This document shows positions 13,397 to 47,341 of a stretch of DNA of 47,341 nt, piece by piece (the stretch's first letter is position 1; each line of letters starts with the position of its first letter). This stretch comes from Candidatus Cloacimonadota bacterium. Its GTDB lineage: Bacteria > Cloacimonadota > Cloacimonadia > Cloacimonadales > TCS61. The notes beneath the pieces were generated by a model. The model searched no databases. It was not told where the DNA came from and saw only the letters and a list, made by a program, of their open reading frames with translations. The translations under genes were made by a program, and so were the position numbers. The DNA lies in the NCBI GenBank assembly GCA_030592835.1, contig JAUVIJ010000001.1, positions 1-47,341 on the forward strand, given 5' to 3'.

Positions 13397-13483
13397 GATA
13401 ACCTCCAAATTTATATGGGTTAAACCCAGATATTGCAGTAGAACTATGCTTATAAATCTTTTATGTGTTAGTGATATTTCCTG

Positions 13484-27800: not shown

Positions 27801-29038
27801 GAACTTGTCAATCGTGTCTTTACCTGTTCAAAATTCAATCCTGGTTCTACCGAAAGAAGTAAACCGATTCCGGCTGAAACGAAGGGAGCGGACATGGAAG
27901 TTCCTGATTGTTCTTTATACAGATTATTTTCGGTAACATCGTACGAACTGATGATCTGAACACCGGGAGCTAACAGATCAAGTTGGGGTCCATAACTGGA
28001 GAAGTTTGCCCTGTTAAAGAAGCGATCTACCGAGCCGACAGCTATTGTAGTGGATAACTGTGCCGGATACATGATCCCGGGACCATAGGTATTGCCTGAA
28101 GACACTACGACGATACTGCCCAATTCGTAAGCATAATGGCAGGCATCGGCTATAATCTGGGAATAGTTTTGATCACCCCAACTGATGTTGATAACATCAG
28201 CTCCCATATCAGCAGCATAAATAATAGATGCAGCTGCATCGTCATCCTGGAGATATCCCAGACCCTCAATAGTTTTGAATCCGGCTCTGATGATCAGGAT
28301 ATCGATATTCCAACAGACACCGCATACACCCAGACCATTATTGGTATCAGCCCCGATTATACCTGCGAGATGGGTTCCATGATTAATATCATCCGTTGGA
28401 TCATTATCCTGTTCAGTGTAATCACCGAGTGCAATATCAGAAAGTTCGGGAGCATCGACGAAATCCCAACCTCTCCAATCATCGACATATCCGTTATTAT
28501 CATTATCAATACCATCATCTGGTATTTCAGCATCATTATAAAAAACATTATTCTGCACATCCGGATGATCGAAATGCAAACCGGAATCCACAAGACCAAT
28601 CAGGATCTGATCACTTCCAATCGTGTAATTCCAAGCCTCGGGTGCATTAGTATCATGATTGTTTTCCTGGTAAAGTCCCCAAAGTTCTCCGGTTACGAAA
28701 TAAGGATCATTTGGTAATTGGAACATCGTATTTATATAGTTAGGTTGAATATATTCTACACCCGCAAACTCAAGAGGTGCTATTTCTTCCCAGGAAATAT
28801 CATTGTTAAAAGTTATTACATAATACTGGTTATCATTTTTTTTTGTGATTGATTTAATACTTTTCAGTCCCTGAGACATCAGGAAACTATCGAAATCCTC
28901 AAGTCCAAAATTGCCCGAATCTACAGATCTGGTAGTGTTTGTCTTGACTATCAATTCCCGGGGGGAATATTCAAGACCATTTAAAAAAGAGATTATAATC
29001 AGCATTAGCAAGATGATAATCAATTTGGTCAATTTCAT
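24806..29038 (-). CDS. Giant secreted S8 (subtilisin-family) serine protease with I9-like propeptide, FG-GAP/VCBS-type repeats, Ig/FN3-like modules and T9SS C-terminal sorting domain
   Basis: Catalytic triad contexts VDSGLHFDHPD (Asp), HGTHLAGIIGA (His) and SGTSMSAPFVSAG (Ser), plus oxyanion SSGN. Repeats DIDGNGIMEF, DFDQDGNMDV, DFNGDGISEF and DLDGDGDEEV. CTD VYPNPFYPDE...IRIYDLPGDLV...GIYFYVV. GGGGGA upstream of the ATG. Confidence 0.85.
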   Translation of the reverse strand: MKLTKLIIILLMLIIISFLNGLEYSPRELIVKTNTTRSVDSGNFGLEDFDSFLMSQGLKSIKSITKKNDNQYYVITFNNDISWEEIAPLEFAGVEYIQPNYINTMFQLPNDPYFVTGELWGLYQENNHDTNAPEAWNYTIGSDQILIGLVDSGLHFDHPDVQNNVFYNDAEIPDDGIDNDNNGYVDDWRGWDFVDAPELSDIALGDYTEQDNDPTDDINHGTHLAGIIGADTNNGLGVCGVCWNIDILIIRAGFKTIEGLGYLQDDDAAASIIYAADMGADVINISWGDQNYSQIIADACHYAYELGSIVVVSSGNTYGPGIMYPAQLSTTIAVGSVDRFFNRANFSSYGPQLDLLAPGVQIISSYDVTENNLYKEQSGTSMSAPFVSAGIGLLLSVEPGLNFEQVKTRLTSSCRDIGDSGYDIEHGHGVLDLEAFLTNEEYPDFLIEFPSDFQGLNQSFDIIGTVMADNFSKYSIMYTDEELPFPGDWKDINYPHMNTPTYYYEQVENGILGHFDLEGVSSEFNKYQLRVEVMTCENGHYELRRTIFLDQTPPVQDFSLTGIMKRYDDEYVKYFLQTVYDEPVQLSASYVDINNNKYLVAFSNITDEIQMFNLPEPEVDYTGIELWAINQCGLEVVYSPEENNIPLPDEFISLDVNSFEYQTLGNEIIATRKHLDIDGNGIMEFLAQEIVGDEKILKIFEVSNRNLITKHIFDFELWPQDLGFTSEEDISLLGLSADIARLYVSEEGEMYPSTLLWSETNVYGGNFVDIDNDGIDEIAIIKNETDEMVTRRILAIYKRFGNTINRIYTIYNETETNLKNEFVNKIHVADFDQDGNMDVLTSDTDGDVIIYELYSINSEYEMKWQDRLPVPDAYYPTLVDFNGDGISEFCVGGFTRNYADPNKSYSFFKYYSWLGEDDQYGSIGYTAFDHVEGKNSIAVADLDGDGDEEVFLSLPPNSYVIDDVGGEIIPVWKGESTKTYQNIITAHSYSPENEAYIIVNTGTTDQLESILITKSELFTGPITPYNFLCSPLNEQTSHLQWNYEGLPYDYFNIYRKFGSNIILLDTTTEFEFTETGLSAGDTLYYQVSAVCGEFVPQESKPTLWKQVIPSYIPLLILIDMVSSNILELNFDQILNNGAINNLHYEINNGVGLPASVNFINEKRGVILTFNNGILPAEEYSIQITGVQGKTGVPFSDGSYPFLYKEDVDAPRILYSRVEDDGNVKVYFSEPIKTLQAENLSNYTLIPPSNDPDNGIIDLQYYSVMDSFYVNLYLIKNLEYSTKKYFLKIENVEDLNGNRISNNGNKSRFNLTDITNLKHMKVYPNPFYPDEYQELRFVNLPLGIEGSIRIYDLPGDLVFKDRLGPLTESELNNFYSWDGKNNAGNRVASGIYFYVVEMNKDHRKGKFAIIY

Positions 29039-29069
29039 AATTTTTCCCCCAGTTAATCTGTCTCAGCTA

Positions 29070-29966
29070 TTAGAATCTGTAACTCAAACCTATCATATGA
29101 ACATCATCTATCTCATAATCAAAAGGAAGATAGGTATAATCGATATAGAATCTCCTGATCTGAAATCCAACACCAACGCTGAAATCCTCGGCATCATAGT
29201 TTATTTTGTAACCAAGGCGCAAGGAAAACCGGTCGTAAAGGATAGCGTTTATTCCTACAGCACCTTTTATATTTTCATCATCTATGTTTTTCAGAGTTTT
29301 CAATTCCGCAAAGATCCGGTATACTTCTGTTTCAAACCCTTTAATCAAAGAAAATTCAAAGGATAGAGGAAGCGGTAATTTTTCTTTATCCATTTTCGTA
29401 GTGAATCCGAGATGTTTTACGGCTGCGGCAACCATTAATTCTTTTATCGGAGTAATGTAAGCATAGCCCAGGTCCAAAGACCCTCCCAAACTGGAGGAGT
29501 CATCGATTTTCTCATAAAGACCACTGATATTGATCGCGGCATAATGATCCGGGTTTATTCTGTATCCCCCGTGCAGGGTAAAAACAAGATCGAGGGGATG
29601 GAACTCACCGATAAGGTCACCGGTATCATCTCTTTCATCGATTTTACCATAATCAAGCTGTCTGAAAGCAACACCAAAGGATCTCTTTCCTGTAGATTTT
29701 ATATAGCCCAGTCCGGTCAGTGAAGTATCGAATATCCAGAATTTATGTGCAACTGAGATCATTTCTCCCCGATTGTACACCCCGGCAGCAGGATTGGCCA
29801 GAAAACTGAAACTGTCATAATTGGAAAAAGATCCTGTTCCTCCCTGAGCGGAAATACTGGTTCCAATATCGATCGTTAACATCTTGAATCCATATTCTCC
29901 ACCGGATTCTGCAAGCAGCAATCCGGCTAATTGTATGATCATGAGTATAATTACGAACTTTTTCAT
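29070..29966 (-). CDS. PorV/PorQ/FadL-superfamily outer-membrane beta-barrel protein
   Basis: Signal peptide, then N-terminal G.KMLTIDIGTSISAQGGTG...LANPAAG (the GG...NPA pattern of PorV/FadL barrels). Alternating beta pattern and terminal aromatic (SYRF). GGAGG upstream. Sandwiched between two T9SS cargo genes. Confidence 0.55.
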   Translation of the reverse strand: MKKFVIILMIIQLAGLLLAESGGEYGFKMLTIDIGTSISAQGGTGSFSNYDSFSFLANPAAGVYNRGEMISVAHKFWIFDTSLTGLGYIKSTGKRSFGVAFRQLDYGKIDERDDTGDLIGEFHPLDLVFTLHGGYRINPDHYAAINISGLYEKIDDSSSLGGSLDLGYAYITPIKELMVAAAVKHLGFTTKMDKEKLPLPLSFEFSLIKGFETEVYRIFAELKTLKNIDDENIKGAVGINAILYDRFSLRLGYKINYDAEDFSVGVGFQIRRFYIDYTYLPFDYEIDDVHMIGLSYRF

Positions 29967-30002
29967 TTATCCTCCGGAAATATTCTAGTTTAAAATATCT
30001 GC

Positions 30003-33000
30003 CTATTTTTCAATAGCAAATTTTCTTTTCAATACACTCCCTTTTGCTTTAATCATTGCGAAATACATTCCCGAAGCCAGATTTCTGGCATCCAACTGAA
30101 TCCCGTTACGGATATAAGCTTCACAATATGATTTTTTTGTGTAAATAATATTACCAGCAATGTCAAATATTTTTATTTCAACATTTGAATTTACCGACGT
30201 CATTATCCTTATCGTTACTGTCTGAGACCATTCCTGACCATTGTAAATACTACTGTTATATACCGAACTAAGGGGATTGGGATAGATATAAGTTTCTTCC
30301 ACAACAAAGACTCCCTGCTGCAGATAATTATTCTCAGGCAGGTTCCCCAGCCAGGACGCTGTTCGCTGTAAATTTCCATATTCACATGTCCAAGACGTTA
30401 AAGCTGGTGATTGTGTTAATTTTTTTCTGAAAATCGAGCCATTATCACTGGAGATATAAATAGTGCTGTCAGATTCCGATATTACCGGATATTGCCTACT
30501 TATATTGGCATAAGCAAGAGGATAATCTCTTCTAATTTCATAATCATTATTGAGGAGATTGTTCCAGACCGCCAGTCGATTTCTGGACATGTTACCGATA
30601 ATTTCCAGGTTCCCGTCATTCTCCAGATCAATCGCCATGATGCCAGCCGCTTGATAAAGTGAATCAGGGGCTGAAACAGGCTGGCTCGGTTTACTAATAG
30701 AACCGTCTTTATCTATTATAATAAAATCATTTTCTCCGCCAATCAGAATGTCAAGATATCCGTTCCTATCCACATCAGCCAGTGATGGCATGGAAAAGGA
30801 ATCCATTTCCAGTTCAACCGGGAAATTATCCAAAAGATTCAGATTCTGGTCCAGGACATAGACAAGGGTGTCGGGAAAAGATGTCAGAAAGATGATCTCA
30901 TTTTCTTCGTCATTATTAATGTCAGCCAGAAATGTGGAATGGATAATTGTTTCAGGATCCATTACGGAAATGCTTATTACAGTGTATTCACTAGTTTCAA
31001 GATCGGTTTCTATAAGTTTGAAAACCGATTCCGAATCCTGTCCAAAATGATATATAGTTCCATTTTTCAGCATTAAATTTGAAACTATTTTCAAGCCTTG
31101 GAATTCAATTGGCTGGTATAAAATATAATCCTGATCAAAAACCTGGATCCTGCTGGCAAATTGATCTGTTCTATTCAAGGGCAGAAGTAATCTAAAAGTG
31201 CTGTTCTGGTCGGGATTAACAACCGGAGGTCCGGCCCATTCGGTTGCGAAAAAGGGTGGAAAGTACTCATAAGCTTCTTCCCCATTCAGGAAAAACAGAC
31301 CTGCATAGACATTTCCAGGTGCCTTTGTTGGGATAATGAATGTTCCGGTTACTTCATCGAACGCATAAAAATCAGCCAGGGAATCACTGTTTACCGGGTA
31401 ACCTTCTACAAGTTCGAAATTATCCCAGAGATAGAAATTCCCGTCAGGCATCGGGTAGAAAATTTCATTGTCTCCATCCTGATCAAGATCTACTACGGCT
31501 GCTGGATAGGGGTTTTCTCCTTCATAACCGGTGTTTAAGTTCCATTTAAAACGGACGGATATATTCATCAGGGAATCAGAAGCGCTGATATTGTAAATCT
31601 CCAATTGATTCCCACCGTAATAACTGTCGGCTATCGGTAAATGCGGTCCACTTTCACCCTCGGGATACATTTTGCCAAAATAAGTGTTGTTACCTTCTCT
31701 AAAAGCATCGAAAGGTGATCCCAGACTGTAGATATTTGTAGTAAAATCCAGATGCTGGATCCCATCGGCTTCTTCCAGATCGACTCCCTTATGAGAAGCA
31801 TTGCCGTTTACGGAATTGGATTCAAAATCAGGATCAAAATTAGCGTTAATTATATTTTCATCAATATGCCAGATCAAAAGACCGGAACCATCCTCCGGCT
31901 CATTTGGTCCACCCAGACCCGGACAGTAGAAATCCCATTCACATCCTTCGTATGTGTTTTCCATGAAGTTGAATTTGGGTTGTCCCGCATTGGGATGCCC
32001 TGGAGGATAAACATCCTGTTCTCCTGGAGGTAAAAGATGGAAAGTGAATGAAGGTTCACCGTTTGCCATGCTCCCATCCGGATTTTGTTGTCTGTTTTCC
32101 AAAAGAAAGTATTCACTGTCGGATATCTTAACCTGAATGAGTTTCGGAGTTTCGGTATCTTCTGCCAGGGGAAAGACAAGTTGCTGTTCTTCGATATAAT
32201 TGTCGATCTCTACTAAAAAATTTTCTTCCCAACCGAGATAATACCTGGACCAGGCACAAGGCAGGGGCGGCACAAAACCGTTGGCATTCCAGACACCCGT
32301 ACCCATAAGACCAAAATTTCCTATCCCGAAAGAAGCACCGTTGTCAGAATTGTTATCAAAAAGTGTGGGTAGTCCGATGGCATGACCTACCTGATGGCAA
32401 TAAACACCATAGATTCCATATACCGTATCCCCTAAATTGTTGTCGGGCTGCCATTCTGTTTCCGGGCAAATGACAAAATTTGTCAGGATAATTCCATCAT
32501 CTGTCTCTATCCCAATGAATTCTTCATTCTCCGGATCTAATCCTGCATTAAGTGATCTTCTGGTTATGAAAGTACTCCAGAGCTCATCCTCATTATTGCC
32601 AGTGATATCTGCTTCCTGACCTGCTCCCGAGTGGATGATTATAATTTCATCATATTCCGTAAAATCAATAACCGGGTCGGATAACTCAACGACTTCCACC
32701 ACAAATTCTGCTATTCTTTCAGTCCAGTTGTCATCATCCCCATAATAACCCATCTCATTGTCAACAGTGAAAACATCATTCCAGACAGTAAAATCTTCTG
32801 CTGTGATATTGTATACTCCATGTGAGACATCTCTGAAATAACCAGCAACATGAAACATCATTCTTTCAAAGAAGGTTTTATCATGAGCCAAGGAGTCGGG
32901 GTAGTCAGCGATCAGATCAAAGCCGACATCTGGAAAATCTACTCGCAGAACTAAAATATCCTCTGGTAACTCTCTCACTTGGTTTCGGGATAAAGGCATA

Positions 33001-33125
33001 TATTCCCGCGAGATCTGGTGATAATACTGCATTTCAGAAATACTTTTTGCGGGTACAGGTGGAACGGCAAAGATGTTATTTAAGGCTACAAACAGGATCA
33101 GGATCGTGAAAAGAATTCTACCCAT
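30003..33125 (-). CDS. M6 (immune inhibitor A)-like metalloprotease-domain protein with HQxxH in place of HExxH, FG-GAP-type repeats and T9SS C-terminal sorting domain
   Basis: M6-like blocks VLRVDFPD, IIIHSGAGQEA and CHQVGHAIGLPTLFD. The Gln245 codon is CAG (plus strand 32391-32393). Repeats DLDQDGDNEIF, DINNDEENEIIF, DVDRNGYLDIL and DLENDGNLEII. CTD IYPNPLSS...VEIKIFDIAGNII...GMYFAMI. AAGGAG upstream. Confidence 0.7.
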   Translation of the reverse strand: MGRILFTILILFVALNNIFAVPPVPAKSISEMQYYHQISREYMPLSRNQVRELPEDILVLRVDFPDVGFDLIADYPDSLAHDKTFFERMMFHVAGYFRDVSHGVYNITAEDFTVWNDVFTVDNEMGYYGDDDNWTERIAEFVVEVVELSDPVIDFTEYDEIIIIHSGAGQEADITGNNEDELWSTFITRRSLNAGLDPENEEFIGIETDDGIILTNFVICPETEWQPDNNLGDTVYGIYGVYCHQVGHAIGLPTLFDNNSDNGASFGIGNFGLMGTGVWNANGFVPPLPCAWSRYYLGWEENFLVEIDNYIEEQQLVFPLAEDTETPKLIQVKISDSEYFLLENRQQNPDGSMANGEPSFTFHLLPPGEQDVYPPGHPNAGQPKFNFMENTYEGCEWDFYCPGLGGPNEPEDGSGLLIWHIDENIINANFDPDFESNSVNGNASHKGVDLEEADGIQHLDFTTNIYSLGSPFDAFREGNNTYFGKMYPEGESGPHLPIADSYYGGNQLEIYNISASDSLMNISVRFKWNLNTGYEGENPYPAAVVDLDQDGDNEIFYPMPDGNFYLWDNFELVEGYPVNSDSLADFYAFDEVTGTFIIPTKAPGNVYAGLFFLNGEEAYEYFPPFFATEWAGPPVVNPDQNSTFRLLLPLNRTDQFASRIQVFDQDYILYQPIEFQGLKIVSNLMLKNGTIYHFGQDSESVFKLIETDLETSEYTVISISVMDPETIIHSTFLADINNDEENEIIFLTSFPDTLVYVLDQNLNLLDNFPVELEMDSFSMPSLADVDRNGYLDILIGGENDFIIIDKDGSISKPSQPVSAPDSLYQAAGIMAIDLENDGNLEIIGNMSRNRLAVWNNLLNNDYEIRRDYPLAYANISRQYPVISESDSTIYISSDNGSIFRKKLTQSPALTSWTCEYGNLQRTASWLGNLPENNYLQQGVFVVEETYIYPNPLSSVYNSSIYNGQEWSQTVTIRIMTSVNSNVEIKIFDIAGNIIYTKKSYCEAYIRNGIQLDARNLASGMYFAMIKAKGSVLKRKFAIEK

Positions 33126-36795: not shown

Positions 36796-38328
36796 ATGAA
36801 AATTTTTAAATATTACAACCTTTTCCTGTTGGTATTTTTTCTTACCCCTATTTTCATTCCTGCACTGATCGCTCAGGATTTCACTTTCTATTCTACTGCT
36901 GATATGAGGATATATGCCGGTTCCGGAATATATGATACTTCCAGTTATTTTCGCGGTGTCTGTGAAGCTATCGCTGATCTAGGGTCTGGAGATTTTATGA
37001 TTATTAATGGCGATCTTGATCCTCCTGAAGGAGTTAGTTGGACAATTGAGCAATATCTTGGTTCGGATTACGTCTGGTATCCTGTTACTGGAAATCATGA
37101 AGCAGAAACACCGGAAGATATGGTATGGATGAGAAACATCAATTCAGGAGGTAATTCTCTACCTAACGTCGTCAATATTGGTCCTCCGGGATGTGTTGAA
37201 ACAACCTTCTCTTTTGATTATAATAACTGCCATTTTATAATACTGAATCAGTATTTTGACGGAACCAGCGATGTCGGCACCAATGGTGATGTTGTCGATG
37301 CTCTTTATAACTGGCTGGTGCAGGATTTAGCACAAACAGAGAAGGAGCTGATATTCGTTATCGGTCATGAACCGGCCTACCCTCAACCGGATGAATTCAA
37401 CGGACGCGAAAGACATATGGATGACAGCCTTAATCAGCACCCAACCAATCGTGACAGGTTCTGGCAATTACTTTCATCTTCAGGAGTATATGCATATTTT
37501 TGCGGTCATACCCATAATTACAGTTCATATTACCGGGATGGGGTCTGGCAAATAGATGCAGGTCATGCACGGGGAATCGGTGATACCGGAGCACCCAGTA
37601 CTTTCATCAGAGTCAATATATCTGGCAATGATGTCTCAATGACTGTCTATCGTGATATACATGACGGTATTTATGATTACGATGATATAACAGAAGATAT
37701 CGCTCTTGCGGTCGAGATGTCAAGTTTAACCGCTGGTATGGATGGGAGTTTGCCCTATTTAAGCTGGACTACACAAAGCGAAACCAATAATATCGGTTGG
37801 TATATTTACAGGGAAGAGAGTGACCTTTTCCTTTCAAGTTTACAGTTGAACAATGAACTGATCCCTGGAGCTGGAACCACTTCCCAGCCAACAAACTATC
37901 TCTATTATGATCCTGCTGAGACCTTTATTGGTCAGACCTACTGGTATTGGATAGAAAGCCTTGCAAATGACGGACAGACAGGTTTATTCGGTCCTGTTTC
38001 TTTAATCATTGGAGATGATCAGCCTTACGAGGATCCACCTTTAGTCCCTGTTGAATACGGTCTGTTACAGAATAGTCCAAATCCCTTTAATCCGGAGACA
38101 ATGATATACTATCGACTGGAAGTGGAAGATGATGTCATGGTCGAGATCTACAATGTGAAAGGTGAACGGGTCCGTATATTTACAGAGGGAGCAATGCTTC
38201 CCGGCCTACATAACCTCTCCTGGAATGGTGATGCCATGGATGGTAATCCAGTTGACAGCGGAATATACTTTTGTTATCTGAGAGTTAGAGATTATACCAA
38301 TTCAATGAAAATGTTGCTGCTCAAATGA
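36796..38328 (+). CDS. Secreted calcineurin-like metallophosphoesterase with T9SS C-terminal sorting domain
   Basis: Metallophosphoesterase motifs GDLD, GNHE (PVTGNHEAE), GHEP and GHTHNY. CTD QNSPNPFNPET...VEIYNVKGERV...GIYFCYLRV. GGGAGG upstream. Confidence 0.75.
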   Translation: MKIFKYYNLFLLVFFLTPIFIPALIAQDFTFYSTADMRIYAGSGIYDTSSYFRGVCEAIADLGSGDFMIINGDLDPPEGVSWTIEQYLGSDYVWYPVTGNHEAETPEDMVWMRNINSGGNSLPNVVNIGPPGCVETTFSFDYNNCHFIILNQYFDGTSDVGTNGDVVDALYNWLVQDLAQTEKELIFVIGHEPAYPQPDEFNGRERHMDDSLNQHPTNRDRFWQLLSSSGVYAYFCGHTHNYSSYYRDGVWQIDAGHARGIGDTGAPSTFIRVNISGNDVSMTVYRDIHDGIYDYDDITEDIALAVEMSSLTAGMDGSLPYLSWTTQSETNNIGWYIYREESDLFLSSLQLNNELIPGAGTTSQPTNYLYYDPAETFIGQTYWYWIESLANDGQTGLFGPVSLIIGDDQPYEDPPLVPVEYGLLQNSPNPFNPETMIYYRLEVEDDVMVEIYNVKGERVRIFTEGAMLPGLHNLSWNGDAMDGNPVDSGIYFCYLRVRDYTNSMKMLLLK

Positions 38329-38510
38329 AATGTTAAATTCATAAAAAGACCGGAGTTTAACCAATTATATTAAGAGTGAAATCTACTGCAAATTGCCCGC
38401 AAAGAAATTGTTAAGTTTAACTTAAAATTGACAAGGGATGTATCCATATTTTTTTTGTTAGTTTCGATAAATATTATTCAGTATTGATTAGGATAAATGG
38501 GGAGTTGAAC

Positions 38511-39716
38511 ATGAGAATATTAATTGTATTACTACTGGTTCTGGGTTCAGTATCATTGTGGACTAATTCTATTTTTTCCTTCGAAGGTATGCCTATTCAA
38601 TATTACGGAAATGATGTTTATGGAATGGGAATGGGCGAGACAGGTCTGGGTGATCTGCACAGAATCAATACAAACTATTCCAATCCGGCAAATATTGTAA
38701 CAGCTAATAAGGTCATATTCTCCACCGCTCTGGGAATGGGTTATATGTGGTATCTTGACGAATATGATAGAGGATACCGTGATGATGGACTATGTTTACC
38801 TTACTTTAGCATTGTAGTACCCATCGGAAATCATAAATTTGCCTTCAGTTTTAACTCAACATTATCGGGAAATGTGGAAAACCAGCAGTTACGCCAATGG
38901 GAAGACATAAACTATACTGAAATAAACAGGATCAGTTCAGAAATATATAAAGCTGGTATTATCTATGGTCTTAAAAATAAATATTTGAATTTTGGATTAA
39001 GCATTGATTATTATATTGGTCACCGAATCCACTACTGGATGCTTGATTTTGACGGTATTTATCTTATCGATACCAAATATGAAATTGATAAATCCTTTAA
39101 TAATCCTGGCTTTTCACTGGGGGTTAATAAAAAAATCGGGGCTTTTTCCTTTGGTTTAACCTACTCTTCAAAAGTTGATCTTAGTGGAGATACCGAGTTC
39201 AAATATGGTCATCCTCCCTATACTGATACCCTATCAACCGATGTGGAGGACTTGTTTCAAATACCGGAACAGGTAGGATTTGGAGCCAGTCTTGAAATTC
39301 TCGAAAGATACAAAACTTCTCTTGATCTAATTTATGAAAACTGGAAAGATACTGATCTTTATGATAAAAGTACTATCAAAGTTGCGTTGGGGATTTCTTA
39401 TGATCCACTGAGCGGATACGGAAAATGGTATGAACAAATTCCTATACGGGCTGGCGGTTATCTCCGTGAACTGCCTTTTGAGAAGAATAACAAACCAATT
39501 TACGAAAAAGCTGTTACTCTGGGAACTTCTATTCCTTTGAAAACTCCTAGTAAAAAAATCGACCTCGGTTTCAAATACCTATACCGAGGGAACTTGAATG
39601 ATAATGGTGTTAGAGATAAAAGTATAATGTTCTATATTGGAATAACCGGTTTTGATATTTTTGCCAAAAGACTGAAAAAGATAGATCATCGGGATATTCC
39701 TGAGGCAGAAAAATAA
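38511..39716 (+). CDS. PorV/FadL-superfamily-like outer-membrane beta-barrel protein (hypothetical)
   Basis: GGGGAG precedes ATG 38511. Signal peptide. N-terminal YGMGMGETGLGDL....YSNPANIV (GG...NPA pattern). About 400 aa with alternating beta pattern. Follows a T9SS cargo gene. Confidence 0.5.
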   Translation: MRILIVLLLVLGSVSLWTNSIFSFEGMPIQYYGNDVYGMGMGETGLGDLHRINTNYSNPANIVTANKVIFSTALGMGYMWYLDEYDRGYRDDGLCLPYFSIVVPIGNHKFAFSFNSTLSGNVENQQLRQWEDINYTEINRISSEIYKAGIIYGLKNKYLNFGLSIDYYIGHRIHYWMLDFDGIYLIDTKYEIDKSFNNPGFSLGVNKKIGAFSFGLTYSSKVDLSGDTEFKYGHPPYTDTLSTDVEDLFQIPEQVGFGASLEILERYKTSLDLIYENWKDTDLYDKSTIKVALGISYDPLSGYGKWYEQIPIRAGGYLRELPFEKNNKPIYEKAVTLGTSIPLKTPSKKIDLGFKYLYRGNLNDNGVRDKSIMFYIGITGFDIFAKRLKKIDHRDIPEAEK

Positions 39717-39723
39717 TATTTAT

Positions 39724-41280
39724 ATGAATTTCAAATGGCAGATATTCGAAAAATCAGATCTGACAATATTCGAACAGATCAAGACAGGAAGACGAATTAC
39801 AGAAGATTTTCTTAAATCCTCCTTTTCTGATCTTCCCGACACATTCCTGATGACGGATCTGGACCTGGCTTAGACGAGGATCATCCAAGCAGTTAAGAAT
39901 AATGAGAAAATCATCATTTTCGGTCACGATGATCTCGATGGGATCACTTCCACATATATTCTCTTCGATTTTTTGAATAAAATAGGCTCCCAGAAACATT
40001 TTTATTACATCCCTAATCGTATAATTGACAATCATGGTATGCAGAAAAATTTCGTTAAAAGAGTAACCAAAGAGAGTTTTGATCTGGTCATAACTGTTGA
40101 TGGGGGTATTTCAGATTTTTCCGCAGTCAATAAAATAAACTCTTTTGATTGTGATATAATAATTACAGATCATCATCTGGTTCAGACTCATGTCCCCGAT
40201 GCCTTTGCAGTTGTCAATCCCAAGCAGAAAGAATGTAGCTATCCATATAAAATGCTGGCTGGTGTTGGTGTTGTTTATATGCTAATAATCAATCTGGCGG
40301 AAAAGCTCTCTATCGAAATCGATAAAAATTACCTGTTCTGGGTAACAATTGGCAGTGTTGCCGATAAAGTACCGATGACAGGAGTCAACAGAATATTGAT
40401 AAAGAAAGTTCTGGATGAGTGGTTTAGCTTTAATGACAGTACTTTGAAAATCATTATCAATCAGAATCTCTATCCAATAAACCATACTACCCGGATGGGG
40501 ATCATCAGACATACTATAAGGCTTCTTTCTAACGGAAGAAAACCAGATGGAGAAAATCTGATTCTGGAATTACTATTAAAACCGATCGGAGAGAAAGAAA
40601 AGATTTTCCAGAAATTATATAAAAACCTCAACCTTTCTGAAAGACGGATCAATAAACTACGAACAGTTTTGAATGAAATTGCTGCTTCAATCGATTCCAA
40701 TTATTATCTTTATTACGATAACTCCGGGAAAATTCCTTCCGATCTTCTTGGATTCAGCGCCTCATATTTATCCAGCTATCTTAAGATACCCGTTATCATG
40801 CTTGTTGACAAGAGGGAGATTGTAACCTGTGAGGCTCGTTGTACAGACGGTTTTAATCTGATAAATGCCTTTGAATATTGCGGCGAGACATTGATTCAAT
40901 ATGGTGGTCATACAAAAGCAGCAGGTTTCACGATTAAACCAGAAAATGTGCCACAATTTAAAAAGAAATTTACCGATTTCGTGGCTCTGAACGCTCAGAG
41001 CATCACCGATAATAGAAAAATCCATGTCGATGCTGTTTTATATCCGGAAAATTTAGATTCTTTTATCGATTTTCTCCAAACTGACTTCCATTTTATGCAG
41101 CCTTATGGAGAAGAGAATCCATCTCCTCATTACCTTTTAAGAAATTACTCTAAGGATACTTTCACGGAAAATCTGAAAATAGAAAATTTGAATCTACTGT
41201 CAGAAAATTCCAATTATGATCTAATCCTTAAATTCAACGGGTCCTGTCTGCATATTGTTGACTATAATTTGATTCAATAA
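39724..41280 (+). pseudogene. recJ: Single-stranded-DNA-specific exonuclease RecJ interrupted by one in-frame TAG (39871-39873): pseudogene, assembly error or read-through candidate
   Basis: Hand translation from ATG 39724 gives MNFKWQ...FSDLPDTFLMTDLDLA-TAG-TRIIQAVKNNEKIIIFGHDDLDGITS... in one frame (39724 and the track ORF at 39973 share a frame). DHH motif I (GHDDLDG, 39922-39942) lies after the TAG but before the first canonical restart codon (TTG 39973). Downstream motifs ITDHH and GGHTKAAGF (DHHA1) are intact. Confidence 0.75.
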
Positions 41281-41292
41281 TCCGGAGTAAAA

Positions 41293-41463
41293 ATGATTAT
41301 CAATAGAGATCTTTGCGATATTTGTGGTTCTTGTGTAGCAGTTTGCCCTGCCGATGCAATTGAAATCTCTGAATTCAAAGTAACTATCCTGGATGAAGTT
41401 TGTATCAATTGTCTGAAATGTATACAGGTATGTCCGATAAAAGCGATCAAAGAGGGGAATTAA
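41293..41463 (+). CDS. 2x[4Fe-4S] ferredoxin (56 aa, not in the ORF track)
   Basis: Hand translation: MIINRDLCDICGSCVAVCPADAIEISEFKVTILDEVCINCLKCIQVCPIKAIKEGN. Contains two CxxCxxCxxxCP motifs. GGAG upstream. Stop TAA at 41461-41463, 2 nt before the next ATG. Confidence 0.85.
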   Translation: MIINRDLCDICGSCVAVCPADAIEISEFKVTILDEVCINCLKCIQVCPIKAIKEGN

Positions 41464-41465
41464 TA

Positions 41466-42653
41466 ATGATATCCTCTAAATATGATGTTGTTGTTATCGG
41501 TTCCGGACCGACTGGTAGTGTGACCGCCAGATATGCGGCAGAGAATGGGGCTTCGGTTTTAATTCTGGAAAGAGATCGTGAACCTGGAATCCCTGTAAGA
41601 TGCGCAGAAGGAGTTTCACACAATGGAATCGCTCCTTTTATAGATATTGATCAACGCTGGATAGCTTCCCGGATTGAAACCGCTAAACTGACAGCTCCTA
41701 ACGGTGAATCTGCTTATCTCTACAATAATGGTATCGGTTACGTTCTGGAAAGACGTCTTTTTGATAATGCTTTAGCCGAACTTGCTTGCAGGAATGGAGC
41801 TCAGTTGCTTACCAAAGCAAATGCTACTGGATTAGTCTGGAAAAATAACAGAATAAGCGGCGTTAAATATACACATCTCGGACAGAAAAAAGAAGTTCTT
41901 TGTGATCTGGTTATTGGTGCAGATGGTGTGGAATCACGGGTTGGTCGCTGGGCCGGGATCAAGACAGACGTTGCCTTAAAAGATATAGATACTTGTGTTC
42001 AATACACAATGGTAGATATAAAAGTAGAAAAGGATACGATTGAATTCTTTTTTGGAACTGACATTTCACCGGGCGGATATGTCTGGATCTTCCCTAAATC
42101 AGAAGATACTGCGAATGTCGGAATCGGGATATCAGGACACATGGCAACTGAGAAAGGCCCGAAATATTATCTGGACAATTTCGTGGAAAGACATTTCCCA
42201 AAAGGTAAAATAACATGCAGGGTTTATGGTGGAGTAACCACGGCAAAAACGCTTAAGAAAATAGTGAAAAATAATATAATGCTTGTCGGTGATGCCGCCC
42301 GGCAGGTAAATCCTCTGACCGGTGGTGGTATTGCCCAGGGCATGCATGCAGCAAGTATTGCAGGAAAAATAGCTGCTGAAGCAGTAAAAAGGGAAGATTT
42401 CAGCTCCCAATTTCTTAAAAAATATCGAAAAGAATGGGACATCCGACTGGGCAATATTCAAAATACCATGTACTCCATGAAAGAAAAGGTCATAAATATG
42501 TCCAACGATCGTTTCAACAGGTTAGTCAAGGTGTGCCAGGGTATCCCACGAGATGAATTTAGCCTGAAGAAATTGTTCACTGAAGCTGTTAAGGGAGACC
42601 CAAAACTGATTTTAGACATTGCCAAAGCCTTTGTTGTATATAAAATGAAATAA
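41466..42653 (+). CDS. Geranylgeranyl reductase family flavoprotein, archaeal digeranylgeranylglycerophospholipid-reductase-like
   Basis: FAD fingerprint YDVVVIGSGPTGS, conserved catalytic-site PVRCAEG (Cys46), YVLER, GADGVESRVGRWAG, PGGYVWIFPK...ANVGIG and LVGDAARQVNPLTGGGI. Start at ATG 41466 (the track start at 41400 overlaps the ferredoxin gene). Confidence 0.85.
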   Translation: MISSKYDVVVIGSGPTGSVTARYAAENGASVLILERDREPGIPVRCAEGVSHNGIAPFIDIDQRWIASRIETAKLTAPNGESAYLYNNGIGYVLERRLFDNALAELACRNGAQLLTKANATGLVWKNNRISGVKYTHLGQKKEVLCDLVIGADGVESRVGRWAGIKTDVALKDIDTCVQYTMVDIKVEKDTIEFFFGTDISPGGYVWIFPKSEDTANVGIGISGHMATEKGPKYYLDNFVERHFPKGKITCRVYGGVTTAKTLKKIVKNNIMLVGDAARQVNPLTGGGIAQGMHAASIAGKIAAEAVKREDFSSQFLKKYRKEWDIRLGNIQNTMYSMKEKVINMSNDRFNRLVKVCQGIPRDEFSLKKLFTEAVKGDPKLILDIAKAFVVYKMK

Positions 42654-43280
42654 ATGGAAATGCATAAAAAGGAAATTGCCAGGAAATCTATTCATCTCAG
42701 TTCTTTCTTAATTCCTCTATCCTACCGATATTTACTTCCTTTGCTATTTACCGGATCAATAAAATCCATACCAACGAGAACTCACCAGAAAATCGCAGTG
42801 CTGGTATTATCCTTATTAGCAGTTATCTCTCTAATTATAGAAATACTGAGAACGGAGAATAACTCTTTCAGAAAACTGTTTGAGAAAACCTTGGGAAAGA
42901 TGATGAGAGTTCATGAAAAAAAAAACATCACCGGGGCAACTTTTCTTCTGGTCTCTTCTATTGTCTGCATCTCTTTTTTTCCTTACAATATTGCTTTTGT
43001 CTGCCTTAGTTTTCTGGTTATAGGGGATACAATGGCAGCCATTATCGGAATGTCTGTGGGTAAAAGGAAGATTGTGGGAACTGATAAAAGCGTGGAGGGA
43101 AGTCTTGCCTGTTTTATCAGCACGTTTATATTTTCACTTTTTTTTCTGAATCCAATCCTGGCTTTAACCGGGTCTTTCACAGCCACTCTGGCTGAATTAA
43201 CCTCACTCGGTATTGATGATAATTTTAAAATTCCCGTTATTTCCGGCGCAACTATGTCGGTAGCCAGTATGTTTATTTAA
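42654..43280 (+). CDS. Polyprenol kinase family membrane protein (COG0170: dolichol kinase SEC59 / phytol kinase VTE5-like, CTP-dependent)
   Basis: 208 aa, about 6 TM. IGDTMAAIIGMSVGKRK, DKSVEGSLACF and C-terminal GIDDNFKIPV match the dolichol/phytol kinase branch of the CTP-transferase superfamily rather than CdsA or CarS. The ATG directly abuts the upstream TAA. Confidence 0.65.
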   Translation: MEMHKKEIARKSIHLSSFLIPLSYRYLLPLLFTGSIKSIPTRTHQKIAVLVLSLLAVISLIIEILRTENNSFRKLFEKTLGKMMRVHEKKNITGATFLLVSSIVCISFFPYNIAFVCLSFLVIGDTMAAIIGMSVGKRKIVGTDKSVEGSLACFISTFIFSLFFLNPILALTGSFTATLAELTSLGIDDNFKIPVISGATMSVASMFI

Positions 43281-43294
43281 GAAGGGAGCGAAAT

Positions 43295-44227
43295 ATGAAA
43301 TTAAGCTTTGTAATCCCTGTATATAATGAAGAAGAGAGCCTGGATATTCTTCACCGGGAAATCCTGGCAAATATAAGCTCTTCAGATTATGAGATCATTT
43401 TTATAGACGATGGCAGTACCGATAACAGTTTTTCCATTCTTAAAGAACTTTCTGATAAAGATAAAAATGTGAAAGTTGTGAAGTTCAGAAAAAATTTTGG
43501 GAAAGCCGCTGGTTTACAGACCGGGTTCGAAATAGCATCCGGAGATTACATTTTCACTCTGGATGGAGACTTACAGGACAACCCTTCCGAAATACCCCGT
43601 TTTCTGAAGAAACTGGGCGAAGGTTATGATCTGGTCATCGGTTGGAAGAAGAAAAGGAAGGATCCTATATCTAAAACAATTCCATCCAAACTTTTTAACA
43701 TAATTACCTCTATAGTATTCAAACTGAAACTCCATGATTATAATAGCGGTTTCAAAGCATACAGAAAGGAAGTAATCAAGGAATTGGATATCTATGGCGA
43801 GATGCACAGATATATACCGGCATTGGCAAAAGCAAAGGGATTTCGGGTTACAGAGATACCTGTAGAACACAGAATCAGGAAATATGGAAGATCTAAATAT
43901 GGAAAGGAAAGATATCTGCGAGGATTTCTGGATCTCCTGACCGTTAAACTGGTCACAGGCTATATCCACAGTCCTCTTTATCTATTCGGAAGGATCGGCA
44001 TTTTTTTCTCTTTGGTCGGTTTTATTCTGGGAGTTTATCTCTCAGTGATGAAATTTGTGTATAATCACCCTTTAGCTAATCGCCCACTCTTATTTCTTGC
44101 CGTGCTTTTGATCATGGTCGGGCTTCAGTTCTTTTCTATTGGACTTCTGGGTGAATTGATAACAAATCAAAATCGGAAAGCTAATCGAAATACAAATATT
44201 TCTATTACCAAGACAATAAACACATAG
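43295..44227 (+). CDS. GT2 polyprenyl-phosphate hexosyltransferase (GtrB/ArnC/DPM1-like) with two C-terminal TM helices
   Basis: SFVIPVYNEEESL, IFIDDGSTDNS and TLDGDLQD (DxD). Interface helices, then two TMs (LYLFGRIGIFFSLVGFILGVYL; LLFLAVLLIMVGLQFFSIGLLGE), the hallmark architecture of polyisoprenyl-phosphate glycosyltransferases. AGGGAG upstream. Confidence 0.8.
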   Translation: MKLSFVIPVYNEEESLDILHREILANISSSDYEIIFIDDGSTDNSFSILKELSDKDKNVKVVKFRKNFGKAAGLQTGFEIASGDYIFTLDGDLQDNPSEIPRFLKKLGEGYDLVIGWKKKRKDPISKTIPSKLFNIITSIVFKLKLHDYNSGFKAYRKEVIKELDIYGEMHRYIPALAKAKGFRVTEIPVEHRIRKYGRSKYGKERYLRGFLDLLTVKLVTGYIHSPLYLFGRIGIFFSLVGFILGVYLSVMKFVYNHPLANRPLLFLAVLLIMVGLQFFSIGLLGELITNQNRKANRNTNISITKTINT

Positions 44228-44243
44228 TAATAAAAAGGGCTTT

Positions 44244-45608
44244 ATGGAATACCTGTCTCAGTTTCAGAATATGATGAAAGCAGCAGGGATGAGCGAACTT
44301 GTTATCAAATCTTTTTTTCAATACTATCTTCAAGTTCGGGAAGGAAAATTCGGTTTTATCCCTGAAAACGATATCATGTTACCCGATACTGATAATATTT
44401 TTAGTTATGAAAAACTCAGCCCGGGAACCAACAGCCATCTGGACAAGCTGGCCGTGATCAAGCTCAATGGTGGTTTGGGAACCAGCATGGGTTTAAAAAA
44501 AGCCAAGTCTCTACTTATGGTTAAGGATGGTTTAAATTTTCTGGATATAATCAGTAAACAGATCCTTTATTTAAGAGATCGTACCAGGATTAATATCCCT
44601 CTGATTTTCATGCATAGCTTCAATACCCGGGAAGATTCCTTACAACATCTTTCCCAATATGAAAACTTGAAAATCAAAGATCTGCCCTTCGATTTTGTTC
44701 AGAATAAATTCCCCAGAATATATCAGAAAGACCTCTCTCCAGTGATGATGAAAGATTCCACTCTTAACTGGAGCCCTCCCGGACATGGAGAAATATATCT
44801 GGTTCTACATTTAAGTGGAATTCTTAATCTCCTTCTTGATCACGGTATTGAATACCTGTTCATCTCCAATTCAGATAATCTGGGAGCAGTCGTAGACAGG
44901 CGAATACTTGACTTTATTATTTCCAGGAAAATCCCTTTCCTGATGGAAGTTTGTAAACGTACTGAGCAGGATAAAAAGGGGGGACATCTTGCCCAAAATG
45001 GAAGCGGTCAGTTGATTTTAAGAGAAGTGGCTCAGTGCCAAAGCGAAGATCTTGCTGCATTCCAGGATATAAAAAAATACAAGTATTTTAATACTAATAA
45101 TCTCTGGATAAACCTGAAAGTTTTGAAACAATCTCTTGTAAATTATAATTATCTGTTGCCACTACCACTTATACTTAATGCTAAAACCGTTGGAACTGGG
45201 AAAGTGTTCCAGATTGAATCAGCAATGGGTGCTGCCATCGGTATATTCCCGGGTTCTAAAGCACTGGTTGTGGATAGAAATCGTTTTATCCCTGTAAAAA
45301 AAACCGACGACCTTCTTTTAATAAGATCTGATGCCTATTCCCTATCCGACAATTCATCCCTGAAATTGCATCCGGATCTTACAACCCCACCCTTGGTAAA
45401 ACTCGATCCTGAATATTACAATACTCTTGAACAACTGGAAGAACATTTTGCGGAAGGTGTTCCTTCTCTAATAAAATGTCAACAATTGGAAATTCAGGGT
45501 GATGTATCTTTCGGTAAAAATATTCAATTCCATGGTAACGTGAAATTGAACACTAAAAACCCACTCCTACTGGAAAATCAAATTATATCCGGATCACTTG
45601 AGCTATAG
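44244..45608 (+). CDS. UTP--glucose-1-phosphate uridylyltransferase of the eukaryote-type UDPGP family
   Basis: 454 aa. VIKLNGGLGTSMGLKKAKSLL...DGLNFLD matches the UGPase-type signature (LNGGLGTSMG) rather than bacterial GalU or the UAP (GGQGTRLG) type. SNSDNLGA, KGGHL and FNTNNLW blocks follow. Confidence 0.75.
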   Translation: MEYLSQFQNMMKAAGMSELVIKSFFQYYLQVREGKFGFIPENDIMLPDTDNIFSYEKLSPGTNSHLDKLAVIKLNGGLGTSMGLKKAKSLLMVKDGLNFLDIISKQILYLRDRTRINIPLIFMHSFNTREDSLQHLSQYENLKIKDLPFDFVQNKFPRIYQKDLSPVMMKDSTLNWSPPGHGEIYLVLHLSGILNLLLDHGIEYLFISNSDNLGAVVDRRILDFIISRKIPFLMEVCKRTEQDKKGGHLAQNGSGQLILREVAQCQSEDLAAFQDIKKYKYFNTNNLWINLKVLKQSLVNYNYLLPLPLILNAKTVGTGKVFQIESAMGAAIGIFPGSKALVVDRNRFIPVKKTDDLLLIRSDAYSLSDNSSLKLHPDLTTPPLVKLDPEYYNTLEQLEEHFAEGVPSLIKCQQLEIQGDVSFGKNIQFHGNVKLNTKNPLLLENQIISGSLEL

Positions 45609-45856
45609 AAAGTTATTCTCATAACTTCTTTGTTATTGAACCTAGATAATACGATAGAACTGTGTAAATGCGTCAATAAGCCTTAGGTTTATAAATCTTT
45701 TATATGTGAGTGATTCACAAAATTATTATCTGAATATCTTTATGATATGCACATTCCGAATGCTTTCGAAATTAAACCATCCCCCTATAAAATATTACTG
45801 CTCTTCAATATACCTTTATTGCATTATCTGGGTTGAGCATAATAAACAAATTTTTA

Positions 45857-45885
45857 TTGACTTTACACAATTACAATTTTATTTT
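45857..45885 (+). promoter_or_regulatory. Putative sigma70-like promoter for the sensor kinase gene
   Basis: TTGACT (45857-45862), 17-nt spacer, TATTTT (45880-45885), 35 nt upstream of ATG 45921. Confidence 0.3.
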
Positions 45886-45920
45886 TTTCTTAATCGCGTG
45901 TTCCATAAAGGGAGTCGATT

Positions 45921-47341
45921 ATGAACAAGACAATATTTATAGCCGAAGATGATATTGAATTACTCATGAGTTATAAGCTGATCTTTCAACAATACAACTC
46001 ACTGGCATCTGATGAAGAACCCTACAATGTTGAACTTTTTGAGGATGGGGATATTTTATACAATGCTTTTCGTAAGGTATATAAAGAAGAGAGACAGGTC
46101 CCTTTATGTATTCTGGATATAAGGATGCCGAATTTAAGCGGATTCGATACAGCGGAAAAAATCAGAAAAATAGATCCCAAAGTCATCGTAATCTTTGTTA
46201 CTGGCTTCAATGATAAATCTCCCCGGGAAATCAGGGAATCTTTACAGCACGACTATTACTATATTAGAAAACCCTTTATGAAGGATGAAATTTTATCAAT
46301 AACAGATTCTCTTATTAAAAACTGGAACAAAACGGAAGAGTTAATCAGATATAATGATGAGATACAGCAAAGAACTACCGAACTCAATAAAAGCCGTGAA
46401 AAATTCAAGCATTTGACCGATAATCTGAAAAAAAATTACTTTTTCTATACTCATGACACTGAAAGAAAATATCTTTATGTCAGTCCTTCTGTAAAAAATG
46501 TTCTGGGTTATGAAATAAAAGAATATAAAACAAAAATTCCCGATTGCTTTACAGATAACCCGATTAACAAAACTGGCTTAAAGTTGACTGATTTGTCAAT
46601 TAAGGGAAAGCAACAACCTACTTTCGAGGTGGAAATATATCATAAAAATGGAGAAATACGTAATCTGGAAATTTCAGAATTCCCTATTTTTAACGCTGAT
46701 GGAAATGTCACTGTGATCGAAGGAATGGCTCATGATGTTACCTTCCAGAAACAGGCAGAAAAGCTGCAGGCTGTTCTTTACAAGATTTCCAATGCAGTAA
46801 ACACGATAGCAGATGTGGAAGAATTATTCCTTTATATCCAGACATCCCTCGGGGAGATTATAGACACCAAAAACTTCTACATTGCTTTATATAATGAAGA
46901 GGAAAATACAATTTCACTGCCATACCTAGTTGATGAAAAAGATAAGTTCAAGTCCATACCGATCAGAAATACTTTCACCAGTTATGTTATCAAAACCGGA
47001 CAATCATTACTGGCAAACAGGGAAACCATGAAAAAACTTATCGCATCCGGGGAAACGGGACGGGTAGGAACTCCTGCTGAAATCTGGTTGGGAGTACCTT
47101 TGAAAACAAGGGGAGAAATTATTGGAGTCGTTGCTGTTCAGAGTTATGATAATCCCGACCTTTATGATGACAAAGACAAAAGCCTCCTTGAATTTGTTTC
47201 AGATCAGGTTGCCCTGGTAATCGAACGAAAAAAAAATGAAATTGAGTTGAAAGAAGCAAAAGAAGCCGCAGAGGATGCGGCTCGTGCAAAAGCTAATTTC
47301 CTGGCTTCTATGAGTCATGAGATTAGAACCCCAATGAATGG
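45921..47341 (+). CDS. Hybrid sensor histidine kinase, N-terminal receiver (REC)-PAS-GAF-HisKA, 3' end outside the window (not in the ORF track)
   Basis: Hand translation from ATG 45921 (AGGGAG at 45909-45914) is open to the window end. REC: [34 protein letters not shown]-like: [14 protein letters not shown]...GMAHDVT. GAF-like: [22 protein letters not shown]. HisKA H-box [14 protein letters not shown] (His codon 47316-47318). Confidence 0.85.

Follow-up and report, generated by a model that had tools for sequence, protein, structure and literature searches.

Archaea and eukaryotes are held to be marked by dolichols, which are saturated carrier lipids, and bacteria by undecaprenol, which is fully unsaturated. 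Does a member of the bacterial phylum Cloacimonadota also make a saturated carrier for a sugar? The question is raised by five genes near the end of a 47,341-nucleotide stretch of DNA (contig JAUVIJ010000001.1 of Candidatus Cloacimonadota bacterium, positions 1 to 47,341; hereafter the window). They encode a ferredoxin (Fd), a protein of the geranylgeranyl reductase (GGR) family, a membrane protein (KIN), a glycosyltransferase (GT2) and a UTP-glucose-1-phosphate uridylyltransferase (UGPase). The cluster is read here as a candidate lipid-carrier module of two tight gene pairs and a sugar-nucleotide supplier, in which a (partly) saturated isoprenoid alcohol would be phosphorylated and then glucosylated from UDP-glucose. 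This reading is favored tentatively, at somewhat less than an even chance. The five genes are as follows.

41293-41463, + strand: Fd gene, 56 amino acids, stop codon TAA
41466-42653, + strand: GGR gene, 395 amino acids, start ATG at 41466, stop TAA at 42651-42653
42654-43280, + strand: KIN (membrane protein) gene, 208 amino acids, start ATG at 42654
43295-44227, + strand: GT2 gene, 310 amino acids
44244-45608, + strand: UGPase gene, 454 amino acids

The intergenic gaps across Fd, GGR, KIN, GT2, and UGPase are 2, 0, 14, and 16 nt. The boundaries and gaps of these packed same-strand frames (41293-45608) are exactly those given in an earlier reading made from the letters of the window (hereafter the sequence-only reading), which took the close spacing as a sign of one transcript. 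A promoter and terminator scan found no terminator-like site on the + strand within 41293-45608; its promoter-like matches were no more frequent than in shuffled sequence. However, the run extends upstream into recJ, whose end lies 12 nt from the start of Fd. The full recJ frame, taken from alignment to its orthologue, spans 39724-41280 and starts 7 nt past an outer-membrane protein gene (38484-39716). The tight same-strand run thus begins upstream of Fd, and, because it already includes recJ and the outer-membrane protein gene, the spacing from Fd to UGPase does not by itself delimit a pathway module. The GC content of the cluster (~38%) is like that of the remainder of the window.

Gene order was compared among relatives. 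Loci were gathered in a scan that took one genome for each species, with tblastn as the next step, and the nearest relatives of the window proteins are named Cloacimonetes or Cloacimonadota. The order Fd-GGR-KIN-GT2 occurs in all 19 Cloacimonadota loci whose GGR is 61-71% identical to that of the window, and UGPase comes next, 16 nt past GT2, in each of the 17 close loci whose contig reaches far enough. The five-gene order, on which the sequence-only reading had staked its proposal, is conserved in relatives, and this conservation is much above chance. The block is intact although the upstream flank (L021, L025) or the downstream flank (the window) differs. The GGR/KIN junction, 0 nt in the window, is a 4-nt overlap in L006. 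A deep relative on a 2.2-Mb contig, L001, keeps Fd-GGR-KIN-GT2 and has no UGPase; its GGR (43% identical to that of the window) is sister to the clade, and its KIN and GT2 are 50% and 65% identical. KIN and GT2 are adjacent in every lineage seen, that is, in the 19 close loci, in L001, and in L039, a Black Sea locus discussed below. Two loci carry insertions: a 382-aa protein, ankyrin-repeat-like by eye, lies between GT2 and UGPase in L021 (12940-14088), and a 77-aa frame lies between GGR and KIN in L022 (11547-11780). Two contigs of one metagenome-assembled genome (MAG), JAOZPK01, each bear the full recJ-Fd-GGR-KIN-GT2-UGPase block (L012 and L015), which suggests a strain mixture or a duplication.

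The first pair, Fd and GGR, resembles an archaeal arrangement. Fd matches Pfam Fer4_10 (6e-14) and has CxxCxxCxxxCP motifs at residues 8 and 37, as expected of a 2x[4Fe-4S] type. Its position 2 nt upstream of GGR on the same strand is the dedicated-ferredoxin arrangement of Methanosarcina acetivorans, whose GGR is described as dependent on the ferredoxin encoded beside it (Isobe 2014, cited in PMC7852524). Fd is presumed to be the electron donor of GGR. In loci of Thermoplasmata and Methanomicrobia (L027-L029), too, an Fd gene immediately precedes GGR, and the archaeal proteins are 34-41% identical to the window GGR, rising to 45% over the best local segment.

Profile hidden Markov models bear out the first call of a GGR-family protein, with TIGR02032 (227.3 bits against a cut-off of 158.8) and PF22578 GGR_cat (2.5e-29, 101 bits against 27) both exceeded. 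The best PDB match is the digeranylgeranylglycerophospholipid (DGGGPL) reductase of Thermoplasma acidophilum, 3OZ2 (1.6e-75, residues 5-366); identity to TaGGR is 39% over the full length. All the motifs align with 3OZ2, namely those for FAD (GSGPTG, residue 12) and the catalytic Cys (PVRCAEG, 43), YxWxFP (YVWIFP, 205), LxGD (LVGDAA, 273), and GGG (TGGGI, 285). The highest NCBIfam model is that of the Thermoplasmatales DGGGPL reductase, at 283 bits, and the protein falls under the equivalog cut-offs of three archaeal DGGGPL reductase models (NF041160, 283 against 780; NF041080, 185 against 580; NF041385, 114 against 700). GGR is classed by these scores as a euryarchaeal-type GGR-family flavoprotein, nearest the DGGGPL reductases but not an equivalog of them.

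Other roles known for this family were tried and rejected as identities for GGR, namely MenJ (73 bits against a cut-off of 700), ChlP (74 against 505), and BchP-ChlP (138 against 343). Membership in these clades, which the sequence-only reading had named as evidence that would count against its proposal, was not found, all scores lying far under the cut-offs. MenJ-like reduction of a menaquinone side chain, or ChlP/BchP-like phytyl formation with phytol salvage, is accordingly an extremely improbable explanation of the cluster. A GGR with a VTE5-type kinase is a pairing of plant and cyanobacterial phytol metabolism, where ChlP and VTE5 act with VTE6, and JGI labels some KIN homologues as phytol kinase. 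Unlike phytol salvage, however, the cluster has no second (VTE6-type) kinase, GT2 and UGPase are linked to it and left unaccounted for, and neither the window nor related loci contain quinone or pigment genes such as those of chlorophyll or tocopherol.

The likeness of GGR to DGGGPL reductases leads to a second explanation, in which Fd-GGR saturates archaeal-type lipids derived from digeranylgeranylglyceryl phosphate (DGGGP), and KIN-GT2-UGPase is a separate, ordinary undecaprenyl-phosphate-glucose module that shares the neighborhood. KIN would then be a lipid or undecaprenol kinase and GT2 an undecaprenyl-phosphate-glucose synthase. This division of the cluster is possible, if on the unlikely side. 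Villanueva 2021 (PMC7852524) showed that the geranylgeranylglyceryl phosphate (GGGP) and DGGGP synthases (GGGPS and DGGGPS) of Cloacimonetes MAGs are active, and reported a Euryarchaeota-like GGR of Cloacimonetes, which was assigned to ether-lipid saturation and treated only as that step. The GGR of the MAG NIOZ-UU1, from the same phylum, falls with the window GGR in one bacterial clade (47-53% identity). The nearest structural relative, 3OZ2, is itself a DGGGPL reductase, and the Fd-GGR pairing is typical of archaeal membrane-lipid GGRs. Those enzymes (T. acidophilum Ta0516 / 3OZ2 and M. acetivorans) share with the window the Fd-GGR gene order, the catalytic Cys, YxWxFP, and LxGD; they differ in having no kinase or GT2 neighbors, and the window GGR has a bacterial host and a score under the equivalog (283 against 780). 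Two further points suit this division: a thiamine operon separates Fd-GGR from KIN-GT2 in L039, and recJ and other unrelated genes are as syntenic as the cluster.

Gene context and history weigh against the ether-lipid explanation. GGR stands beside GGGPS or DGGGPS in none of the loci examined; both genes were missing from the window and from every locus retrieved, and UppS was likewise not found in the 47,341-nt window. The histories of the enzymes also differ, because GGGPS/DGGGPS of Cloacimonetes group with TACK archaea and GGR with Euryarchaeota (PMC7852524). In most lineages, GGR and KIN abut or overlap, and they remain joined where the flanks change; a separate GGR gives no account of why a prenol-kinase-type gene always precedes GT2. 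The carrier-lipid and ether-lipid explanations could both hold, because a single GGR might serve in both roles. Components of the operon and ether-lipid genes do co-exist in the Black Sea lineage. The contig of NIOZ-UU1 (L038) reads gcvPAB-Fd-HicB-HicA-GGR and stops 282 nt past GGR; the HicB-HicA-like pair between Fd and GGR bears the RAST labels UPF0150 protein and YcfA family protein.

KIN, a polytopic membrane protein, decides whether the second pair begins with a kinase. Its classification was drawn from a profile of 34 homologues, from motifs, and from an AlphaFold2 (AF2) model. PF01148 is matched by 10 of the 34 homologues (best 4.2e-6), and the L039 orthologue exceeds the gathering score of that model (28.3 bits against 24). 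Against the PDB, the 34-homologue profile found TmCdsA as its sole match (E 0.004), across the DxxAxxxGxxxG...KSxEG region. The AF2 model (pLDDT 94.9) resembles CdsA alone in Foldseek, with a probability of 0.99 and a TM-score of 0.33-0.39; this fold search could not tell a kinase from a transferase, because the PDB library searched yielded no structure of the kinase branch. KIN has the motif D125-TMA-AIIG-MSVG-x8-KSVEG149, present in relaxed form in all 34 homologues. The CTP-binding motif of dolichol kinase is given as DXXAXXXGXXXGX8KKTXEG (Shridas and Waechter 2006, via PMC13586052); KIN departs from it in a spacer shorter by one residue and in having another residue in place of the first K. 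Because CdsA has the motif too, it places KIN only at the level of the superfamily.

The features that separate the two branches point away from CdsA. The CdsA signature (PROSITE PS01315), HGG, and DRxD are all absent from the KIN sequence, and a conserved C-terminal E181...DDN..P, kept in 32 of the 34 homologues, occupies the place of the signature. The latter may resemble the C-terminal motif of DOLK, which is taken as a lead only. Database names diverge: JGI calls KIN homologues 'dolichol kinase' or 'phytol kinase', NCBI calls them 'SEC59/DGK1/VTE5 family', and older NCBI records call them 'phosphatidate cytidylyltransferase'. The family is large, with 13,923 representatives at E<=1e-3 in a representative-library search, and is mostly bacterial. 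With moderate confidence, KIN is predicted to be a SEC59/DGK1/VTE5 kinase-type member of the CdsA superfamily, that is, a CTP-dependent kinase of a lipid alcohol. CdsA orthology of the membrane protein, which the sequence-only reading had itself set against its proposal, was not found.

A cytidylyltransferase would nevertheless have a use in this phylum. As a CdsA/CarS analogue making CDP-archaeol, KIN would fill the CarS gap of Cloacimonetes, since the Black Sea MAGs yielded no CarS (PMC7852524). The structural and PDB likeness only to CdsA and the older NCBI name favor this role, as do Bacteroidota-like KIN homologues right after ftsH. These homologues directly follow tilS-hpt-ftsH in two separate lineages (L003/L004, 8001-8684 region; L033, 6001-6615), and in some Bacteroidetes it is the canonical cdsA that sits at this position. 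However, besides the missing signature, HGG, and DRxD and the conserved E...DDN..P in their stead, the Foldseek TM-score to CdsA is low, no homologue among the 34 matches CarS (PF01864), CarS is absent from the PDB-profile and Foldseek matches, and a separate canonical cdsA of 272 aa is already present in a Cloacimonetes MAG. A cytidylyltransferase role for KIN is very improbable.

GT2 can be placed more firmly. It matches PF00535 (2.5e-37, 128.8 bits) and aligns with ArnC over residues 2-290 of 310 (2e-49), as well as with GtrB sll0501 (1e-29) and Pyrococcus DPMS (1e-23), so that the alignment is full-length and the first call of a GtrB/DPM1-type GT2 holds. Its NCBIfam scores (ArnC 194 bits, PgfS 168, AglJ 98) are every one under the equivalog cut-off, and it is not an ArnC equivalog (NF007986, 194 bits against 529). 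The protein has a D90-G-D92 motif and a C-terminal transmembrane hairpin (segments 227-256 and 259-290). This architecture, a GT-A domain with a two-helix transmembrane hairpin, is shared with the bacterial undecaprenyl-phosphate-sugar systems GtrB/GtrA/GtrC, CsbB-YfhO, and ArnC-ArnT. Those systems, however, use fully unsaturated undecaprenyl phosphate and have no linked reductase or CTP-type kinase, and, unlike the GtrB and ArnC systems, the Cloacimonadota cluster has no GtrA or GT-C partner gene. All near curated or solved relatives of GT2 use a polyprenyl or dolichyl monophosphate as sugar acceptor. GT2 is predicted on this basis to be a polyprenyl-phosphate glycosyltransferase of the ArnC/GtrB/DPMS type.

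The same acceptor preference bears on a third explanation, in which a DGK1-like KIN and GT2 act on archaeol- or diacylglycerol-type lipids whose chains GGR saturates. KIN would make phosphatidic or archaetidic acid, GT2 would glucosylate the lipid phosphate or the free diol, and the product would be a glucose-bearing ether glycolipid or phosphoglycolipid. The kinase family does include yeast DGK1, a CTP-dependent diacylglycerol kinase; archaetidic acid, as a lipid phosphate monoester, resembles the usual acceptors of GT2; the nearest relative of GGR takes substrates of glycerophospholipid type; and the Black Sea MAGs lack CarS. Since none of the close solved or curated GT2 relatives uses a glycerolipid and no such product is known, this route is improbable.

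UGPase, the supplier in the proposed module, matches PF01704 (8.6e-132, 440 bits against 22) and no NCBIfam model. It scores far better against trypanosomatid, yeast, plant, and human UGPases (1e-104 to 1e-79) than against UDP-GlcNAc pyrophosphorylases (UAP; 1e-5), and has the nucleotide-binding loop LNGGLGTSMG at residue 74. The model match, the loop, and the preference for UGP over UAP uphold the first call, and the protein is predicted to be a eukaryote-type UTP-glucose-1-phosphate uridylyltransferase of the UDPGP family. UDP-glucose as donor for GT2 is proposed solely from this neighbor.

Joined in gene order, these assignments give a possible pathway. Fd-driven GGR would saturate at least one double bond in an isoprenoid alcohol or in a precursor of it. 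If the chain is a C55-type polyprenol, the result would be a dolichol-like lipid; the chain could also be C20. KIN would then phosphorylate the free alcohol to the monophosphate at the expense of CTP, and GT2 would move glucose from UDP-glucose, made by the adjacent UGPase, to the lipid phosphate. The resulting glucosyl-phospho-isoprenoid would be flipped over the membrane and would serve as a glucose donor outside the cytoplasm for enzymes encoded elsewhere. Kinases of the SEC59/DGK1/VTE5 type make lipid monophosphates such as dolichyl phosphate and phytyl phosphate, and a kinase is required only when the lipid has a free-alcohol stage, as for dolichol in eukaryotes. Because the KIN family makes what the GT2 family accepts, a lipid monophosphate in both cases, the most economical reading joins KIN to GT2. 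A precedent for the reductase is HVO_1799 of Haloferax volcanii, a GGR homologue described as reducing a glycan-carrier lipid (Naparstek 2012, cited in PMC5088576), at the omega isoprene of dolichyl phosphate (PMC5088576); its likeness to the window GGR is by family only. The archaeal alpha-reduction and dolichol kinase steps are presented in the same source as still unassigned (PMC5088576). For the flipping step, a GtrA-family flippase-like gene is known in the phylum, which favors the carrier-lipid module. It is gene 7271-6840 on contig NODE_10677 of the Cloacimonetes MAG NIOZ-UU1, annotated in Table S5 of Villanueva 2021 as 'dolichol-phosphate mannosyltransferase homolog'; its product is a GtrA-family membrane protein (PF04138, 2.7e-26) and a possible flippase for a lipid-phosphate sugar.

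The proposed chain is most like the eukaryotic dolichyl-phosphate-glucose route (SRD5A3/DFG10, then Sec59/DOLK, then ALG5, fed by UGPase), in which the lipid is likewise saturated, phosphorylated with CTP, and glucosylated. The DOLK CTP motif in KIN (PMC13586052) and the eukaryotic UDPGP family of the UGPase are shared with it. Unlike that route, the window reductase is an FAD/ferredoxin enzyme of the GGR family and not of the steroid-5-alpha-reductase type, KIN is a minimal protein of 208 aa, GT2 is nearest bacterial ArnC/GtrB, the genes belong to a bacterium, and nothing around them points to an oligosaccharyltransferase. The framing of the cluster in the sequence-only reading as the archaeal and eukaryotic way of making such sugars therefore holds only in part, as it does not fit GT2 or the mostly bacterial KIN family.

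Several observations weigh against the carrier-lipid module. The first concerns KIN, which in direct scans gave no match to Pfam or NCBIfam models, even at E<=10; the kinase assignment leans on motifs and on names from other pipelines, and is weak to that extent. The earlier call of a COG0170-type kinase is thus backed by the CTP motif and the missing CdsA signature, but not by a family model for the window protein. Elsewhere, the parts occur apart: the KIN homologues of other phyla lack GGR and GT2 neighbors at the loci viewed, and the Thermoplasmata and Methanomicrobia loci hold the Fd-GGR pair only, with no kinase or GT2 close by. Among these distant homologues, that of Treponema adjoins a gene of EPSP-synthase fold, and the remaining ones lie beside unrelated genes. 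Within the phylum, L039 (JACKQG010002491.1, 6665-13455; from the same assembly as the NIOZ-UU1 contig) reads Fd-GGR-thiE-thi4-thiC-thiD-KIN-GT2, with a KIN and a GT2 37% and 64% identical to those of the window. Because its four thiamine genes (3.8 kb) part Fd-GGR from KIN-GT2, the firm units are these two pairs, and the bond between them looks looser. Synteny itself is a weakened guide to function, because the region belongs to a generally conserved, origin-proximal genome order in which unrelated genes are equally syntenic in most loci: the outer-membrane protein gene and recJ upstream, and sigma-70, MerR, M23, rsmG, and parAB downstream. No flippase or GT-C consumer was found in the window. 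The active GGGP and DGGGP synthases of Cloacimonetes, moreover, need some reductase (PMC7852524). Finally, the steps are read from family membership and gene linkage, and this holds for the substrates, for the sugar, and for a lipid common to GGR, KIN, and GT2. The lipid-linked sugar pathway first proposed for the locus keeps the family identities and the conserved order on its side; the weak KIN assignment, the split in L039, and the ether-lipid explanation, possible though not probable, count against it.

Part of this has been published before. The sequence-only reading stated that it knew of no description of such a five-gene module in bacteria. GGR itself had already been reported, and the operon context was not found in the literature searched, where no paper ties the Cloacimonadota GGR to these neighbors or names dolichol-like carriers in the phylum. 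The Fd pairing and the KIN-GT2-UGPase neighbors of GGR go undiscussed in the accessible portions of the text and supplements of Villanueva 2021 (PMC7852524).

The surroundings of the cluster are as follows. Upstream, recJ has an in-frame TAG (39871-39873) where the L006 orthologue has Ala (55% identity over 515 residues), because of which the mechanically called frame begins only at 39973; the TAG could reflect a sequencing error, a pseudogene, or a readthrough site. In most Cloacimonadota loci, a conserved outer-membrane beta-barrel gene comes before recJ; that of the window (38484-39716) weakly matches BamG (PDB 9N2D_B, E 0.006) and MtrB/PioB, and its L001 counterpart has a weak FadL/Toluene_X match. 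Downstream, a 312-nt gap (45609-45920) separates UGPase from a hybrid sensor kinase gene (45921-47341; receiver, PAS, GAF, and start of HisKA), which leaves the window at its end. Most relatives have sigma-70, MerR, M23, rsmG, and parAB in its place, an origin-proximal synteny, and conserved flippase or GT-C genes were not found downstream of UGPase in relatives, only such housekeeping genes. A prenyl diphosphate synthase (3343-4236) lies ~35-38 kb upstream of the cluster, along with a CDP-alcohol phosphatidyltransferase (6768-7379). It is IspA-like and short-chain, with the FARM DDLPEID and a Tyr at -5, which confirms the earlier FPP-type call. Type IX secretion cargo with C-terminal sorting domains is numerous (12191-14743, 24806-33125, 36796-38328) and includes a 1410-aa S8 subtilase, a 1040-aa M6-like peptidase, a metallophosphoesterase, and two more; a PorP/SprF-like gene is found at 29070-29966. 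There are no tRNA or Rfam matches in the window.

The operon suggests, without proving, a dolichol-like saturated glucose carrier lipid in Cloacimonadota. A stronger form of this proposal, possible but doubtful, is that Cloacimonadota make a dolichol-like (alpha- and/or omega-saturated) polyprenyl-phosphate-glucose with an Fd-dependent GGR to reduce the polyprenol and a minimal CTP-dependent kinase to phosphorylate it. Such a route would be a bacterial version of the dolichol type, assembled from archaeal, bacterial, and eukaryote-type parts. If GGR serves ether lipids instead, its ferredoxin partner would have been identified, which is relevant to reconstituting saturated archaeal lipids in bacteria. 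If the carrier-lipid reading is true, it would qualify the published assumption that the Cloacimonetes GGR serves only the saturation of archaeal-like ether lipids, and it would offer tractable candidate enzymes for archaeal alpha-reduction and dolichol phosphorylation. A conserved bacterial reductase-kinase-glucosyltransferase operon would also blur a second 'lipid divide', the one over carrier lipids.

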